Source: Octopus vulgaris
Lineage: Eukaryota
Direction of reading: 5' to 3'
Assembly (NCBI GenBank): GCA_951406725.2
Contig: OX597827.1
Location: forward strand, 56,916,001 to 56,980,000
DNA length: 64,000 nucleotides
Shown one piece after another: positions 14,960 through 64,000 of this stretch (positions are counted from its first letter, which is position 1; every line of letters starts with the position of its first letter). A program made the translations under genes and the position numbers. The notes below the pieces were generated by a model that worked only from the letters and a program-made list of their open reading frames with translations, ran no database searches and had not been told where the DNA came from.

Positions 14960-16195
14960 TACTATTCTTTCTTGGTTTTGTTCCTTTGAGGAATTCATTT
15001 GAGAATTTAGGTTATGCTTACAGTATGGATATGGAATAATACATCCCCTCAGAAACTCTTGAGTTTCTTTTGATGATGGGACGCTAACATGCAAGTGTTT
15101 GCATGTTAAGTATTTGGGTCCATTAAATTTGTGGTTCATTAAATTTGGACATTTCTATAGTTTCAGATTTTATATGCATACATGTGTGTGTATGTGTGTG
15201 TGTTTGGGTGGTTTTGTGTCTGTCTATGTCATTAATGCTATTTAAAGCCATTTACATCATCATCATCATCGTTTAACGTCCGCTTTCCATGCTAGCATGG
15301 GTTGGACGGTTCAACTGGGGTCTGTGAAGCTGGAAGGCTTCATCAGGCCCAGTTGAACCGTCCAACCCATGCTAGCATGGAAAACGGACGCTAAATGATG
15401 ATGATGATGATGATGATTTACATCCTGTAAGTTAGCAGTTTGACTTACAAAGATTGAGAAAAATAAGTAACAGACTTTAAAATTAATACTGGAGTAGACA
15501 CAATCTTTGAGGTGGCACTTTAGCATGGCTATAGTTATACAAATATACATTCATACATATCTATCAACCTGTCTATTTGTTTACCTATATACCTATTCTC
15601 TTTCCTTTGTTCCTTCATCCCTTTCTTCCTTCAGTTCTTCCAAGCTGTATCAATTTTAAAGATTGATGCCCATATACCAGCCCCTTAACCACTGAGCAAA
15701 ATTAGGTTTTGACTCTTCAATTAACCATTTGTCTTTCTTGTATATCATGTGATACACAGGACATATTTCCCTGGTGTCATTGCATCATATATGATACATA
15801 TATTGATACACATTCCCAATGTTTTTCAATCACCAGAATAACTTGGAACTTAGAATGTATGAAATAGGAGTTAACTAAAAATCTGAAAACAAGCATGGAT
15901 ATTTTGGACAGACTTATGAAAATACTTTGGACAGGCAATGGGCTATCTAAAGAAACAGTGCAATGCCTGTTGTAAATTTTGAAATCAAAAAGTTTAAATC
16001 TTATTGCAACATGCTGACTCTCTCAAATACATATACCTCCAAGACTTTGTTTTAACATCGCAGAATGAAGTCTTAGCTACTGTAATGATTCAGAAATCAT
16101 TTATAAAATTACTATTTTTCTTTGGTAGGTTCAATTTTACCGTTTTGTTATTTTTTTGTCATTTTAAAGCATATTATTTCTATATTCTTCCTCAG

Positions 16196-16358
16196 GACTG
16201 ACTGGCAGTCTGCTAAAAGTGTGTTAGCTGACCAAAACTTTTTGAAAACCCTCCGTAGTTATGACAAGGATCATATACCCGATCCTTTATTGAGAAAACT
16301 CAAAGTCTATATTGATAACCCAAAATTCTTTCCTGAGATTGTTGAGAATGTCTCCAAG
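16196..16358 (+). CDS. DNAH6: DNAH6-like exon 4 (MTBD)
   Basis: cag|G..AAG|gtaaat, 163 nt. Reads TDWQSAKSVLADQNFLKTLRSYDKDHIPDPLLRKLKVYIDNPKFFPEIVENVSK. Confidence 0.92.
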
Positions 16359-17425: not shown

Positions 17426-17539
17426 AGTACAGCAAAATTTAGATTCAGATGAATATGGTACTTAAGTTAAAGGCACCAGAATTTTGTATGGTATTATCTA
17501 TATAAATCAAATGGGGTGATTTAATTGGAAAATTCTAAA

Positions 17540-17627
17540 AGTGGCTGAAGATTGCTCGTCATTTTAAAACTGATGTAATACTTACAGTGTTCAATAAAAT
17601 GAAGTAGCATGAAACAATTGTACTACT
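17540..17627 (+). ncRNA. Penelope-type minimal-stem-III hammerhead motif, GUA after 17622
   Basis: agtgg CTGAAGA ttgct...agcat GAAA c-aatt-g TA ctact. Confidence 0.62.
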
Positions 17628-17817
17628 CTACCTTGGATATACTTGTTGCTTATTTTGATTATGTATATATATATATATATATATATATAAATATATCACA
17701 ATCAAGGAACGGCCATAATAGGCCATTCACCCACTAGAAATAACAGCCAAAAGCTTTAACCGCAAAATAACATTAATTCCGTAAACCAGGAGAAAATTGA
17801 AAAACTTTTACCCTGTA

Positions 17818-17924
17818 ATTTCTTAGACGATGCACCGTTTCATCTACCGTTTAATGGTAAACTAACCTGATTAAATTAAATCAAGCCAATCCACCATAGG
17901 CCCTTAGACTCATCAGTAAGAAAT
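17818..17924 (-). ncRNA. Type I hammerhead ribozyme on the inverted arm, cleavage between 17826 and 17825
   Basis: Exact reverse complement of 18710..18816. Confidence 0.85.
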
Positions 17925-18709
17925 AGCCAAGTCGGAACAGATATTTTTCACGAGGCATTCCTCTTGCTACCTCGGCAATATCTGACCTAAAATTTTCAAA
18001 TCGTCGCACTCGCGCCAAATTTATCGGCAGCAAATAAATATAAGCCACCGATTCCATTACGGAACTAACCAGAAAATTCATAATTAATCAATATAGGGTG
18101 GCAAAAAAAATTTTGTAGAATTCTTTTGCCACCAGCGGCCTAGTAGGAAAAAATTAAATAGTCATAAACCATTTTTACGTTCAACATCACAATCAAGGAA
18201 CGGCCATAATAGGCCATTCACCCACTAGAAATAACAGCCAAAAGCTTTAACCGCAAAATAACATTAATTCTCGTAAACCAGGAGAAAATTGAAAAACTTT
18301 TACCCTGTAATTTCTTATAAGAAATTACAGGGTAAAAGTTTTTCAATTTTCTCCTGGTTTACGGTATTAATGTTATTTTGCGGTTAAAGCTTTTGGCTGT
18401 TATTTCTAGTGGGTGAATGGCCTATTATGGCCGTTCCTTGATTGTGATGTTGAACGTAAAAATGGTTTATGACTATTTAATTTTTTCCTACTAGGCCGCT
18501 GGTGGCAAAAGAATTCTACAAAATTTTTTTTGCCACCCTATATTGATTAATTATGAATTTTCTGGTTAGTTCCGTAATGGAATCGGTGGCTTATATTTAT
18601 TTGCTGCCGATAAATTTGGCGCGAGTGCGACGATTTGAAAATTTTAGGTCAGATATTGCCGAGGTAGCAAGAGGAATGCCTCGTGAAAAATATCTGTTCC
18701 GACTTGGCT

Positions 18710-18816
18710 ATTTCTTACTGATGAGTCTAAGGGCCTATGGTGGATTGGCTTGATTTAATTTAATCAGGTTAGTTTACCATTAAACGGTAGATGAAACGGT
18801 GCATCGTCTAAGAAAT
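18710..18816 (+). ncRNA. Type I hammerhead ribozyme, predicted cleavage GUC after 18808
   Basis: Stem I atttctta/taagaaat; core CTGATGA 18718-24; stem II gtcta/tagat; GAAA 18793-96; stem III cgg-tgca-tcg; then TC. Confidence 0.88.
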
Positions 18817-19200
18817 TACAGGGTAAAAGTTTTTCAATTTTCTCCTGGTTTACGGAATTAATGTTATTTTGCGGTTAAAGCTTTTGGCTGTTATTTCTAG
18901 TGGGTGAATGGCCTATTATGGCCGTTCCTTGATTGTGATGTTGAACGTAAAAATGGTTTATGACTATTTAATTTTTTCCTACTAGGCCGCTGGTGGCAAA
19001 AGAATTCTACAAAATTTTTTTTGCCACCCTATATTGATTAATTATGAATTTTCTGGTTAGTTCCGTAATGGAATCGGTGGCTTATATTTATTTGCTGCCG
19101 ATAAATTTGGCGCGAGTGCGACGATTTGAAAATTTTAGGTCAGATATTGCCGAGGTAGCAAGAGGAATGCCTTGTGAAAAATATCTGTTCCGACTTGGCT

Positions 19201-19307
19201 ATTTCTTACTGATGAGTCTAAGGGCCTATGGTGGATTGGCTTGATTTAATTTAATCAGGTTAGTTTACCATTAAACGGTAGATGAAACGGTGCATCGTCT
19301 AAGAAAT
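19201..19307 (+). ncRNA. Type I hammerhead ribozyme (copy 2), cleavage after 19299
   Basis: Identical to 18710..18816, offset +491. Confidence 0.88.
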
Positions 19308-19691
19308 TACAGGGTAAAAGTTTTTCAATTTTCTCCTGGTTTACGGAATTAATGTTATTTTGCGGTTAAAGCTTTTGGCTGTTATTTCTAGTGGGTGAAT
19401 GGCCTATTATGGCCGTTCCTTGATTGTGATGTTGAACGTAAAAATGGTTTATGACTATTTAATTTTTTCCTACTAGGCCGCTGGTGGCAAAAGAATTCTA
19501 CAAAATTTTTTTTGCCACCCTATATTGATTAATTATGAATTTTCTGGTTAGTTCCGTAATGGAATCGGTGGCTTATATTTATTTGCTGCCGATAAATTTG
19601 GCGCGAGTGCGACGATTTGAAAATTTTAGGTCAGATATTGCCGAGGTAGCAAGAGGAATGCCTTGTGAAAAATATCTGTTCCGACTTGGCT

Positions 19692-19798
19692 ATTTCTTAC
19701 TGATGAGTCTAAGGGCCTATGGTGGATTGGCTTGATTTAATTTAATCAGGTTAGTTTACCATTAAACGGTAGATGAAACGGTGCATCGTCTAAGAAAT
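19692..19798 (+). ncRNA. Type I hammerhead ribozyme (copy 3), cleavage after 19790
   Basis: Identical to 18710..18816, offset +982. Confidence 0.88.
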
Positions 19799-20020
19799 TA
19801 CAGGGTAAAAGTTTTTCAATTTTCTCCTGGTTTACGGAATTAATGTTATTTTGCGGTTAAAGCTTTTGGCTGTTATTTCTAGTGGGTGAATGGCCTATTA
19901 TGGCCGTTCCTTGATTGTGATGTTGAACGTAAAAATGGTTTATGACTATTTAATTTTTTCCTACTAGGCCGCTGGTGGCAAAAGAATTCTACAAAATTTT
20001 TTTTGCCACCCTATATTGAT

Positions 20021-20063
<43 letters not shown>

Positions 20064-26660: not shown

Positions 26661-27009
26661 TAGTTGTTCCTGCAACGTTTTTGTCAGGGCCCAAGTCTAT
26701 AATACAAACATTTTGGTGTATGCTAACAGAAATGTCAAGAAATGCAATGAAAGTTTGGGAAATAGTGCAGGAGAAATTGAGGGCAGGATGGAAGGATTGG
26801 ACAAAAGAGAGGAAGGAGTCTAGTTGTTTGCAGGAGAATGAGGTTGCACTGATACAGTCATCAGTATAATGACCTTATAATTCAGTAGTGAGACCAGTGA
26901 ATCGTGAGAATATTTGGGCCTCAATGTAGCAAACAAACAGGTTTGCATAGTTGGGGGCCCATTCTTGTTTCCAATATATATATTCTTTTTATTTTTATTC
27001 TTTTGATAG

Positions 27010-27247
27010 GCTTGCAAAAGCAAAAGAAGAGCTTGCTACTGTCATGAGTAACCTGAGAGTACACCAGGATGCTTTGGCTAAGGTTGTGGCACAAATTGCT
27101 GCTCTGCAGAAAACATATGATGAAAGTGTAGACGAGAAAGAAAGGCTTGAATGTAAGATCACCCAGACAGCTGTCAGATTGAAACGAGCAACCAAATTAA
27201 CCAAAGCTCTTGCAGATAAGCATGAAAAATGGAAAGAAACAGTCGTA
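27010..27247 (+). CDS. DNAH6: DNAH6-like exon 6 (stalk CC2)
   Basis: tag|G..GTA|gtaagg, 238 nt. Reads LAKAKEELATVMSNLRVHQDALAKV...RLKRATKLTKALADKHEKWKETVV. Confidence 0.9.
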
Positions 27248-27726
27248 GTAAGGAAAACATTGAAAATGATATCATTGTATTGCTATGTATAGATTTTTCA
27301 AGCTTGAGTGAAATTTATTTGCTAAGCTGAACTCAGGAAAGTTATGGATAAAGCATTTCTCATATTAATAAGAATATCTCTTATATAAAATCCATTCTGT
27401 CTGTCTGTGTGTATGGCTTCTAGGATCTCGGGTATCCTCCATCCGATTGCGCTCATCTAACCACATTGCGTCATAGTTAGGTTATTTGTTTTCATCCCAG
27501 ATCCCTTCCCAAAGGGAGGAATTTTTTACAACATTGATAGTCTGGCCTTTCATACTATGATACATAACTTCTGGGTTTGTTGCAAGCTTGTTATTGATGG
27601 CTTTCCATACTTGAAAGTTTTTTTTATATAATGGAATTGTTCACCTGCTGCTTGCAGTCTGTGTTTAAGAGCAACTAATTTTCCTATCAGTGTTTCCTGC
27701 ATGTTTGTATGTATGTACATATATAT

Positions 27727-28831: not shown

Positions 28832-29424
28832 CCAGTAAAAGTTACCATGTGACTTAAGGGCTGAGGGTTTTATGCATAGTTCTTATCAATCAGTTAATAG
28901 TAACAAAAAGATATCTACACTCATGCTCTGAGTTCTATTTATCCAATTTGTACTATCAAACCAATCCAAACTCACACACACACACACACACACACTCTCA
29001 TACATGTACGTAACATGGTATGCAAATTAGTAGCTGCTGAAATTGTTTATTAAGTAAACAGGTTGGCTGCTTGATTCTCTGGGATTGGTCAAATTGATGT
29101 AGACAGCTCTGATGAGAAGAAGTCAATGAAGTACACAAATCAGTTAAAACTCATCATCGTTTATCGTCCGCTTTCCATGCTGGCATGGGTTGGACGGTGC
29201 AACCGGGGTCTGGGAAGCCAGAAGGCTGCACCAGGCCCAATCTGATCTGGCAATGTTTCTACGGCTGGATGCCCTTCCTAACGCCAACCACTCCATGAGT
29301 GTAGTGGGTTCTTTTTACGTGCCACCGGCATAGGTGCCAGACGAGGCTGGCAAACGGTCAAGCATTTTTTTTTTCCTGCAGAGAAATAGATATATTTACC
29401 CTGTTTATTTATCTACTATATAGG

Positions 29425-29463
<39 letters not shown>

Positions 29464-29509
29464 CGGTTATGGCTACTTAAATTTGCATATTTGTATTCCC
29501 TGTTTTCAG

Positions 29510-29812
29510 GAATTTGATCAGCTGTTGGGCCACATTGCTGGTGATGTTTTGATTTCTGCTGGCAGTGTTGCTTATACTGGTGCTTTCACAAATGATTACC
29601 GCCACGAGCTCATTACAATCTGGATTGAGAAATGTTCTGAAGTTGAAATTCCTATTTCAACTGATTTTTCACTGGTTAATACACTCTCAAATTCTTACCA
29701 AATTCGTGAGTGGAACTCTGATGGGCTACCAAGAGATGAGGTCTCCATTGACAATGCAGTAATTGTTATCTACAGCCAGCGTTGGCCTTTAATGATTGAT
29801 CCACAAGAACAA
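29510..29812 (+). CDS. DNAH6: DNAH6-like exon 7 (AAA5 start)
   Basis: cag|GAA..CAA|gtaatt, 303 nt. Reads EFDQLLGHIAGDVLISAGSVAYTGAFTNDYR...IREWNSDGLPRDEVSIDNAVIVIYSQRWPLMIDPQEQ. Confidence 0.95.
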
Positions 29813-30207
29813 GTAATTATGAATATTTGAAATTTTGGACATTTATCTTAAAAATTGTATCAGTTTCATTGATTTTTCCTTCTATTGTTGTGATTTCATT
29901 TACTCTAACAATTTAAACTTAATCTTACTGTAACTATAATAAACTTACTATAATACCCCTATAAGTCACATATATATGTACACACACACACACACACAGA
30001 CATTATATATATATATTTGTGTGTATATATATATATATATACACACACACAAAAATTCTATATTTATAAGCATAATCATAATTAGGGTTCAGCAAAAATT
30101 GCTTCACCACATACCGAAATTTAGAAATAGCAGTTAAATACTATTCCACTACCATAACATCGGATATGTATATTAATTATCAGTGCTCTCAAATTCAAAA
30201 TTGAGAT

Positions 30208-34679: not shown

Positions 34680-35065
34680 TCATTGTTCGACCGTGGTCGA
34701 GACAATGGAATTTACTATGCTACGCCAGGCTTCATGGTCCATCATAGCATTACGGAGGTCCTGTTGCTGGATGCCTGTATCCCTGGAGATTACATCAGGG
34801 TAGGAGAGTGTGTGCCCTCTGGTATCGTGAGCAGATGATTTCCAGAGGAGAAGAGTAGAAATTACTTCTTTTTCAGCTCTACAACAATGTCCAGCAAACT
34901 GGACTCTTCTACCTTTCACAAGAGATGATACAGGTGGTAGTTTTCCATATATTTGTATTTTGGTTGGATGACGTTTCCATGAGATATTTTGAGCTCTCAT
35001 AAGGAGGCGAGTGTAAGTTTCATCCAACCGCCTCTCAAGCTTCTTTGATAACGTCCAAGTTCATA
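34680..35065 (-). mobile_element. RTE-clade LINE 3' fragment
   Basis: WTLSKKLERRLDETYTRLLMRAQNISWKRHPT...RRVQFAGHCCRA...LLLW. Confidence 0.75.
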
Positions 35066-37589: not shown

Positions 37590-38210
37590 TATTGAGTCAT
37601 CCCATAAATAATGTGTTTTTCAATTGCATGAACTAAAAGTCAAAGAGAGATGGGATTAACTACCTGCATCAACTTGCTATAAAAGCAAGTAGTAATTGTA
37701 CCTTGTACTTATTCTTAGTGCAAGTTTTGAAGAGTGCTGTTTGATTTTAACAGTTATTTTTTCAAAGCTATTATGGAAGTGACAAAGGAGCATATTTGGC
37801 TTATTTTGCTTTATGAGTTCAATAAAGGCAAAAATGCAACAGAAAGTGTAAGAAATATTAATGCAGTCTTTGGGGATTGGACAATAAACATAAGCCAGTA
37901 TCAACAGTGGTTCCAGATATTCCGAGCTGGAAACTACAGCCTAGAAGACAAGCTTTGTCCTGGAAGATCTGTAGAGCTCAACAAGGACATCCTGCAAACC
38001 CCTGTGGAACAAAATCTCATAATAACTGTTGAGGAATTTGCAAAGAAGCTTGGATTTGGTCATTCAACCATTCATCGACATCTGCGTGCCATTGGGAAAG
38101 TCAGTAGTTTGTGTCATTGAGTTCCTCACAAACTTTCTGAGTCTAATCACGCACAGAGAGCGATTGTGTGCTCTTCTTTGCTGTTATGTCTCACAAATGA
38201 ACCTTTTTTG
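37590..38210 (+). mobile_element. Mariner transposon 5' fragment (HTH region)
   Basis: MEVTKEHIWLILLYEFNKGKNATESVRNINAVFG...WFQIFRAGNYSLED...STIHRHLRAIGKV...*VPHKL. Confidence 0.85.
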
Positions 38211-44854: not shown

Positions 44855-45810
44855 CAACAACAATAACTATGTGTAATAATGAAACATCAAAAACAAAACA
44901 AAATGTTTTTCTCTCTAAATATATGCAAACAATTTACAAACAGGTAATACTGATTTAGCTAAGGACAAAACAAAAGGTTAAATAGAAAACAAAAGACAAA
45001 ATCTGAATATATTTCCAGAATATATTGAGGGTAAAAGAAAAAAACCCCAAAATTGGGGATAAAAGCCATTCTATGAGTTAATCCTGTAAGGCTTAACAGG
45101 GAACCAGATTGAAAGGTAAGAGTGACTTGAAAACTCTGAGCTAAAAGTATAAACAGAGTGTCTGATACTGGCTGTCCTAGGCCAATGCTGAGCCACAAAT
45201 GAGTACAAGAATAAAATGATAAAAGATATTATCAGCTAGAGCAGACTATGCAACCACTGTTATGAGATGGCCATCTGTTCCTTGCCAAGTCCAACTACAT
45301 ATATATATGCAGGAGTGGCTGTGTGGTAAGTAGCTTGCTTTCCAACCACATAGTTCTGGGTTCAGTCCCACTGCATGGCACCTTGGACAAGTGTCTTCTA
45401 CTATAGCCTTGGGCCGACCCAAGCCTTGTGAGTGGATTTGGTAGATGGAAACTGAAAGATGCTTGTTGTATATATATATATATATTTATATATATGTATG
45501 TATGTATGTATATGTTTGTGTGTCTGTGTTCGTCCCCCCTCCCAACATTGCTTGCCAACCGATGCTGGTGTGCTCACGTCCCCGTCACTTAGTGGTTTGG
45601 GCTATAGTAGAAGATCCAAGACCACATGGTTGGGAAGTAAGCTTCTAAGCCACAGAGTAATATTTTATATTTTTCAGATCAAGATTCTTTTCATTGTGTG
45701 TGTGTGTTTGTGTGTGCATGCGTGCATGCGTGTGTGTGTGTGTGTTTGGACATGTGAATACCAGTCTATTTTTTCTTGTGAAGTACAATGACGTTTCTTT
45801 ATATTCAAAG

Positions 45811-45990
45811 GTGACATCTGATGTAATCAACCAGCGTCTGATTGAGGCCGAACAAACTGAAACTAGCATTTCTACAGCTCGAGAGAAATACCGACCAGTT
45901 GCTGTTCAAGGTTCAATCATATATTTTGCGGTGGCAGATATGGCAATTCTTGATCCAATGTATCAATTCTCTTTGAAATATTTCAAACAG
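45811..45990 (+). CDS. DNAH6: DNAH6-like exon 11
   Basis: aag|GTG..CAG|gtattg, 180 nt. Reads VTSDVINQRLIEAEQTETSISTAREKYRPVAVQGSIIYFAVADMAILDPMYQFSLKYFKQ. Confidence 0.94.
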
Positions 45991-46002
45991 GTATTGTCTA
46001 AC

Positions 46003-62740: not shown

Positions 62741-62965
62741 TCAAGATGCCACACAGTGGGACTGAATCCAGAAATTTGAACTCAGAATGTGATGATGGAT
62801 GAAATGCCACTAAGCATCTCACCCAGTGTGCTAACGATTCTGCCAGCTTGCTGCCTTAATAATTATAATAATAATAATGATAATAATAATAATAACAATA
62901 ACAATAATAATAATAATAATGATAATAATAATAATAATAACAATAACAATAATAATAATAATAAT

Positions 62966-64000
62966 AGCAACCCCCACACATGGATCCTCGAAACACTAGC
63001 CATTAACAAAGTAGCACCAACAATCATAAAATTCATAGAGCACTCTATGAATAAATGGCAAACAGTCCTACACCTCCAAACAAAAGAGGGACTCATGAAA
63101 ACCAAAGACATCCCCATTAGAAGAGGAATATTCCAGGGAGACACGCTCTCTCCACTCCTTTTCTGCTTGGCACTGTCACCTCTATCTGATATGCTAAATA
63201 GAACTGGATGCAGATATAAATGTTACGGCAAAACGATCAGCCACCTTTTATATATGGATGACCTAAAACTATACGCTGCAAATGACAAACAGCTGGAAAC
63301 ACTATTAAAGACAGTTCATGGATTTACCAAAGAAATAGATATGAAATTTGGATTAGAAAAATGCGCCAAAGTAACCATGAAAAGAGGAAAACTAGTTAAG
63401 AGTAACAACATCACACTAGATAAAACCAATGAAATAAAAGAATTAGACCAAAGCCAAACTTACAAATACTTAGGAATCCATGAACTAGATAAGACACAAC
63501 ACACACAAATGAAAGAGAAAATAAAAAAAGAATATTATAGACGAGTTAGATCAATACTAAACACAGAGCTCAATGCTAAAAACAAGATAATAGGTATCAA
63601 CACTTAAGCTGTCCCAGTTATAAGTTACAGCTACAATATCCTTAACTGGACACGAAATGAACTGACCAAAATAGATAGGAAAACAAGAAAAATAATGACA
63701 GGATCTAGGATGCATCACCCAAAATCTGACATAGAAAGACTATATATACAACGTATAGAAGGTGGTAGAGGCCTTATACAGCTGGAAAACTACTATAAAA
63801 TAACCACCATAGGACTGCAAAAATATCTACTTCAGAAGGAAGGAAAACTGATCCAGATAGCGGCAAAACACGAGCAAAACAAAAAACTGTTCTCAGTATT
63901 TAAGGAAGCTGACAAATACAAACAAGAAATCATACCACCTAATAAACATGAAGAAGAAGAAGAAGATGAAGAAACAACAAAAGCTATAAAACAAATGAAA
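62966..64000 (+). mobile_element. 5'-truncated R4/Dong-like non-LTR retrotransposon RT, inserted at (AAT)n, one in-frame stop
   Basis: RT motifs RRGIFQGDTLSPLLF, SHLLYMDDLKLYA and MKFGLEKCA. TAA at 63605-07; the same frame continues AVPVISYS...HHPKSDIERLYIQRIEGGRGL to the window end. Confidence 0.88.

Follow-up and report, generated by a model that had tools for sequence, protein, structure and literature searches.

Inverted insertions of a hammerhead retrozyme in Octopus vulgaris point to priming at two fixed sites and to partial use of cleaved templates

Introduction

The element described here resembles several known systems. With animal non-LTR retrozymes (PMC7229834; bioRxiv 10.64898/2026.07.22.740005) it shares non-coding units in tandem, each with a single type I hammerhead, copies scattered through the genome, a long target duplication and the presence of Penelope-type endonuclease elements in the same genome; its unit is longer, at 491 nt, than the 170-450 nt of reported animal retrozymes (PMC7229834). 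With endonuclease-bearing (EN+) Penelope-like elements (PMC3846280, PMC8557442) it shares head-to-head inversion, palindromes at the join, a one-sided tail, microsatellite targets and target duplications of about 10 bp, but it has no ORF and its tail is 106 nt rather than 30-40. Inversion in Penelope elements has been explained by antisense self-priming (PMC3846280) or by endonuclease resolution, not by twin priming, and PMC8557442 calls the formation of their tandem and inverted ends undefined.

A biochemical reference is Poseidon, a Penelope-like element of the green anole: its purified protein, a predicted dimer, cleaves both target strands and extends each of them (PMC11167929). In vitro, reverse transcription begins at two internal sites, one at either boundary of the tail, and the target is AT-rich, as inferred for the octopus family. 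The accessible text reports no strand preference between these start sites (PMC11167929), whereas in octopus the two sites pair asymmetrically. The R2 element is alike in that a self-cleavage site, of an HDV-like ribozyme, marks the 5' junction of the insertion; ribozyme and clade are different, and the only 5' junction of R2 is made with host DNA rather than between cDNAs (PMC3774820). The element class and its Penelope link, inverted pLTRs, LINE-1 twin priming and the ribozyme-defined 5' junction of R2 are thus already known. A literature search, outside which most subscription papers lay, found neither a proposal of twin priming for Penelope inversions nor a hammerhead footprint in insertion junctions.

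We analysed a 64,000-nt stretch of O. vulgaris contig OX597827.1 (assembly GCA_951406725.2, positions 56,916,001 to 56,980,000; "the window"). An initial annotation had noticed in it a palindrome centred on a hammerhead cleavage site, and had proposed that an RNA with a ribozyme-made 5' end was copied, and that synthesis folded back or switched template at that end.

Results

An inverted retrozyme in a dynein intron

The element (17695-20022, 2.3 kb) consists of 491-nt units of a type I hammerhead retrozyme, inserted head to head into a (TA)n tract, and is made up as follows.

17684..17694, no strand: target-site duplication, left copy, TATATAAATAT; at least 11 nt, borders ambiguous within the TA tract
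17695..18317, minus strand: inverted arm; a full unit (17826-18317) plus unit positions 1-131 (17695-17825), ending at inferred RT start site A (131)
18311..18324, no strand: head-to-head junction, axis 18317/18318; both arms from cleavage +1; same join at two further loci
18318..20022, plus strand: direct arm; three complete units of 491 nt, then unit positions 1-232, ending at inferred RT start site B (232(-237))
20023..20033, no strand: target-site duplication, right copy; 11-nt word matching the left copy

The direct arm thus holds 3.47 units, and the one A that interrupts the TA tract is found on both flanks at equal distance from the element. Four complete hammerheads in tandem non-coding units, dispersed copies (756 + 439 fixed ends, below) and a target duplication above 4 bp (11 nt, at the window locus only) place it among non-LTR retrozymes. 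Its GC content of 37% agrees with the value below 50% expected of them, and its 491-nt unit is slightly above their reported range of 150-450. No ORF of 100 aa or more was found in 17695-20022; there is no RT + GIY-YIG frame, so the element is not an autonomous EN+ Penelope-like element. It does carry the signature of Penelope mobilisation: an inverted 5' arm, a one-sided tail (106 nt in the family) and an AT-rich microsatellite target.

The insertion lies inside an intron of a dynein heavy chain gene on the plus strand, whose exons continue in order on either side:

16197-16358, plus strand: dynein heavy chain exon, Pfam MT
26951-27292, plus strand: dynein heavy chain exon, judged by eye
29390-29830, plus strand: dynein heavy chain exon, Pfam AAA_9 at 29390-29827
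45661-46000, plus strand: dynein heavy chain exon, judged by eye

Other repeats are present in the window. A second high-copy repeat (17436-17650) abuts the TA tract on the left, with very high contig depth in 4/4 runs; a short interspersed repeat beside (CAT)n, at 15257-15420, is itself found as a head-to-head inverted pair; fragments of non-LTR retrotransposon RT frames were seen by eye at 62780-63607 (plus) and 34680-35060 (minus); and a frame at 37731-38120 (plus) resembles the N-terminus of a mariner-type transposase.

The predicted hammerhead

The element holds four complete hammerhead motifs.

17818..17924, minus strand: type I hammerhead of the inverted arm, cut between 17826 and 17825
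18710..18816, plus strand: type I hammerhead 1, cut after 18808
19201..19307, plus strand: type I hammerhead 2, cut after 19299
19692..19798, plus strand: type I hammerhead 3, cut after 19790

Hammerhead 1 has an 8-bp stem I, CUGAUGA, a 5-bp stem II extended by a long hairpin, GAAA, and a 3-bp stem III closed by a palindromic loop. The Rfam model Hammerhead_1 (RF00163) aligns to 18712-18814, with the cut after 18808 and a long insertion in stem II, at E 0.0038 and 22 bits, below the gathering score of 34 bits; a scan of the whole window at gathering thresholds found nothing. Twenty copies from several subfamilies all have the core and three stems, open at stem I. Core changes in them are confined to N7 and H17 (C/A), 97% of the cells are paired, stems I and II show one compensatory change each, and stem III has three invariant pairs. 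Judged from this alignment, the hammerhead is under selection and is a predicted ribozyme. Cleavage by motifs with a short palindromic helix III is reportedly poor in the monomer and more efficient in the dimer (PMC4209133), and by comparison with these the palindromic stem III loop fits incomplete cleavage.

The central junction

The arms are joined without spacer at 18317/18318, each beginning at the first base past the hammerhead triplet: the left ends ...TTTCTTA at 18317 and the right opens TAAGAAA at 18318. The coincidence of palindrome axis and cleavage site first noticed is therefore real in the assembled sequence, and its arithmetic holds (18809-491=18318). Symmetry about the axis is perfect for 46 nt per arm, with about 99.6% identity beyond that across the full unit. 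The triplet C stands at 18808, 19299 and 19790 on the plus strand and at 17826 on the minus strand. Since the internal sites of the locus are GTC in 4/4, the join has not only no spacer but no microhomology.

The chance of about 1 in 491 originally attached to this coincidence does not use the appropriate null. The insertions number at least 756 and are mostly inverted; 20% of 5' ends fall in +1..+25; and symmetric joins are common, 14 of 124 sampled 131/237 pairs joining within 3 nt of symmetry (2.7 expected). A search of the genome (2.8 Gb, 227 contigs) returned just three blunt +1/+1 joins: the window locus and two others, C20 and C21. The marker in C20 is tied to GTC in 24/24 contexts. The C21 palindrome carries markers that usually accompany a GTA triplet (31 vs 7 contexts), and TATA straddling the cut at such a triplet could give the same join by microhomology; we therefore rejected C21 as independent proof. 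An exact +1/+1 join that is this rare, with one case explicable by microhomology, is a further reason to drop the 1 in 491. Among 25 near-symmetric joins around the cut site, the window join alone is blunt at +1; a blunt symmetric join at another locus (L227) lies at +19, away from it. The window locus is also atypical in that both its arms passed intact sites before stopping. The junction 28-mer had no match in metagenome contigs.

Could the palindrome have been created by fold-back during library preparation or assembly? Chimeric long reads are a known hazard at palindromes, and a one-base insertion 47 nt from the axis, present in 0/192 other units compared, may be a consensus error. Among the pieces listed from assembled contigs of four runs none crossed the axis, an outcome neutral on this point. 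On the other hand, unique flank resumes on both sides with a target duplication and the dynein exons in order, the outer end of the inverted arm falls on site 131 as in the family, and 124 loci have this architecture and two further loci this join, all of which make an artefact very improbable. The palindrome is best taken as the cleanest illustration of the process, not as proof of it; the family statistics are the stronger evidence.

Outer ends come in fixed pairs

Genome-wide, at least 756 insertions have a 3' end at unit position 237 and 439 have one at 131, 106 nt away (exact patterns). Our sample took the first 100 of the 756 237-ends. Of the 439 131-ends it took 81 from the 100 that were listed first, after the exclusion of 18 that lay inside loci already sampled and of one neighbour. 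Ten of the 81 loci were dropped (eight duplicates, two internal variants), leaving 171 distinct loci; the counts omit any 5' end that lies 25 nt or less from the 3' start. The arms are head-to-head at 140 loci and direct at 27, and four ran off the extracted DNA, so that 140/167 resolved loci (about 84%) are inverted. For comparison, the word "inverted" is absent from the main text of PMC7229834, and in the accessible part of bioRxiv 10.64898/2026.07.22.740005 it occurs in a reference title only.

Both outer ends were visible at 137 inverted loci, and 124 of these pair a 131 end with one at 225-245; one pairs 131 with 131, one 237 with 237, and 11 end elsewhere. In this census one end is fixed by the sampling and its partner is free. 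Head-to-head arms with a one-sided tail bear out the suggested link with the inverted pLTRs of Penelope-like elements.

The proposed cause of inversion fares differently. In a fold-back or self-priming event, a single cDNA or second strand would turn at the end of the RNA, and endonuclease resolution would later make the fixed outer ends. The short arm of the window element is indeed wholly contained in the long one, near-symmetric joins are in excess, and both outer ends follow a similar TTGATT..AT motif, which may be set beside the cutting of the anole enzyme at ATT (PMC11167929). But one arm must then copy the other, and at least 12 of the 124 pairs, assessed by eye, have no sequence in common (L103, L109, L132, L135, L144, L169, L197, L205, L209, L224, L228, L231). 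Several arms of these pairs are just 21-37 nt, and short non-overlapping arms may result from later deletion; in many further pairs neither arm is contained in the other. A zero-loop hairpin is moreover unable to prime, the first units of the window arms disagree at unit positions 47-49 (window 18271, 18365), and RT start sites in the anole lie at the ends of the tail (PMC11167929). Fixed outer ends (131, 232-237), their 124/137 pairing and the pairs without common sequence together indicate that the fold-back step is probably wrong, and we consider it quite unlikely as the source of these inversions; a template switch at the RNA end is likewise unsupported as their cause.

Some junctions hold extra DNA. 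About 140 nt of upstream flank is captured between the arms of one locus (L269, 1870-2010). At four others (L122, L128, L154, L223) the junctions near +10..+25 often have short templated repeats of neighbouring T/A-rich sequence, resembling those that repeated slippage or theta-type end-joining would leave.

Inner ends cluster past the cleavage site

The initial annotation called for breakpoints to be tabulated across copies, expecting enrichment at the first base past the triplet if templates were cut. They are not uniform: 59 of 290 5' ends (20%) fall in +1..+25 and 80% elsewhere in the unit. Per 1000 nt copied this is 7.7 ends, against 1.45 in -25..-1 and 1.9 elsewhere, a rate ratio of 4.1 to the rest and 5.3 to -25..-1; the best other 25-nt window reaches 3.0. 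Each arm type contributes to the peak (26 and 33 ends), as does each age class of subfamily (27 young, 32 old), and the peak persists when one arm per locus is counted (32/166, ratio 3.9, p 1.7e-9). Neither local microhomology potential nor AT content is maximal at +1..+25, and as sole causes of the peak both were rejected.

The expected concentration on +1 itself did not appear: 1 of the 290 sampled ends is exactly there, and most of the peak lies 5-24 nt downstream. Trimming must therefore be assumed, which counts against reading the peak as cleavage. In the young subfamily genome-wide, nine of 383 arms (at seven loci) stop at +1 and 371 read through, the 12 non-C matches of the search being these nine true arm ends and three GTA point variants. 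By hand calculation about 0.7 stops are expected at the background rate. Four of the nine exact arms join TA-rich sequence, where the leading TA gives microhomology. The notion of a template with a hammerhead-made 5' end thus finds its support at family level, in the 59 ends and in the nine stops against 371 read-throughs.

The peak might instead reflect stalling or slippage at the hammerhead fold or at the U/A tract at +16..+33, or a preference for AT-rich joins, exact +1 ends being merely its tail. Its position at +5..+24, the end of stem I at +8 and the frequency of T/A-rich templated inserts in it would suit this; the rate across the peak would by itself predict about 2.6 arms at +1 where nine (seven loci) were seen (p about 0.02, hand calculation). 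Yet stronger hairpins and longer U runs at 183-221 and 421-470 give just 1.0-2.7 ends per 1000 nt, and direct junctions with the target fall off at the site (15 in +1..+12 vs 2 in -1..-10, by eye, 100 of 113 rows). A stall driven by sequence should also strike at every pass. Stops occur at the first site met in 51 of 225 cases and at later passes, near background, in 8 of 115 (p 2e-4). We regard these alternatives as unlikely. This distribution suggests instead a minority of cut linear RNAs and a majority of circles or uncut multimers.

The arms of a pair behave alike. Of the pairs in which both arms get as far as the site, 22 have both stopping there, 58 have both crossing it and six have one of each (p 2e-14); of 39 near-symmetric pairs, 34 share the same unit frame. 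The coupling extends to other parts of the unit, where short natural palindromes are a frequent location: outside positions 1-40, 10 of 102 pairs come within 3 nt of symmetry, against 1.6 expected. The lengths of the two arms are also correlated (rho 0.56). Coupled stopping therefore points to shared template or timing, not to cleavage as such.

Near-background stops at later passes would be expected also on a circle, and mixed linear and circular monomers are described for animal retrozymes (PMC7229834). The window element could then have arisen by twin priming on a circular monomer, copied by rolling-circle reverse transcription and reopened by the hammerhead while being copied, or from a one-turn template with tandem expansion of the direct arm once inserted. 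Units 2 and 3 share a CpG C>T change (18682, 19173 and 19664 compared) found at one other genomic place only, which fits later duplication; a genome-wide search for their source array returned only that single unit, in a differently built insertion. However, the arms differ by 1083 nt, and two RTs on a 491-nt circle would presumably overtake each other; and unit 1 of the direct arm holds a family allele at position 48, missing in the other units, which also counts against them. We think these routes decidedly unlikely for the window locus.

A search for the partner enzyme

A GIY-YIG search of the genome gave 6136 candidates, of which 148 loci were scored. Among them is a young, high-copy RT + GIY-YIG family, which we take to be Neptune-like; its open frames are 781 aa long and include a Cys-rich linker. 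One locus (L253, 1-1794; G000:C16) has an RT + GIY-YIG frame followed by internal repeats and ends in a (TA)n tract; by eye, no sequence in common with the retrozyme was seen in it. The hammerhead model was run on 20 of the 148 scored loci, each with 1.5-kb flanks, and matched none of them. That no partner RT sharing sequence turned up in these 20 counts against the reading we prefer.

Discussion

The sequences themselves hold (TA)n targets, two fixed 3' ends, paired end types, coupled stops and an excess of stops past the cut. Our preferred reading, to which we give a probability of about 0.6, is that the retrozyme is moved in trans by a Penelope-type RT/GIY-YIG protein through priming at two sites, a hammerhead-cut template and end-joining. 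The geometry, the statistics and the biochemistry of a Penelope-like protein (PMC11167929) are what favour twin priming.

The enzyme and its dimeric state, the single RNA, the cleavage and the repair step are inferred. A Penelope-type RT/GIY-YIG protein, probably a dimer, would cut both target strands with a stagger. One cDNA would be primed on each target strand, at two internal sites of the RNA (131 and 237), most likely on a single molecule, and both would extend toward its 5' end. Were that end made by the hammerhead, both RTs would run off at +1. Usually 5-25 nt would be lost, by nibbling of the RNA or trimming of the cDNA, often with microhomology or small templated inserts, and the free 3' cDNA ends would be joined by end-joining repair, giving a head-to-head inversion with a one-sided tail. 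Blunt joining of run-off ends would be rare, and the window locus such a case; its simplest template would be a linear multimer cut at the first site only and primed in unit 2 (at 131) and unit 4 (at 232).

In LINE-1, twin priming is the less frequent outcome, its internal primer varies and its arms do not overlap; in the octopus retrozyme, by contrast, inversion is the majority outcome, from two fixed sites, and the arms often overlap. Common to both are two target-primed inverted cDNAs joined by repair (10.1101/2024.12.14.628481). The hammerhead of Poseidon was dispensable in vitro and zero RNA-seq reads ended at its site (PMC11167929), which counts against templates being cut, whereas in the octopus family, to judge from the insertions, cut RNA seems to be used in vivo.

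A broader proposal, which we put forward tentatively and at slightly less than even odds, is that Penelope-type integration normally proceeds by twin priming at two sites of one RNA molecule, with about one fifth of the templates in this family being hammerhead-cut linear RNAs and the rest circles or uncut multimers. If it is true, a single step would account for junction palindromes, one-sided tail and inverted pLTR alike, and a census of junctions would reveal in which state the germ-line RNA was copied. The geometry of the junctions suggests a route by which Penelope-type elements form their inverted ends, and the record left by this young family, of at least 756 insertions, bears both on that process and on the role of the hammerhead. 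From it follow sharp predictions: each of two defined start sites would serve a different target strand, and ribozyme mutants would lose the stops in +1..+25.
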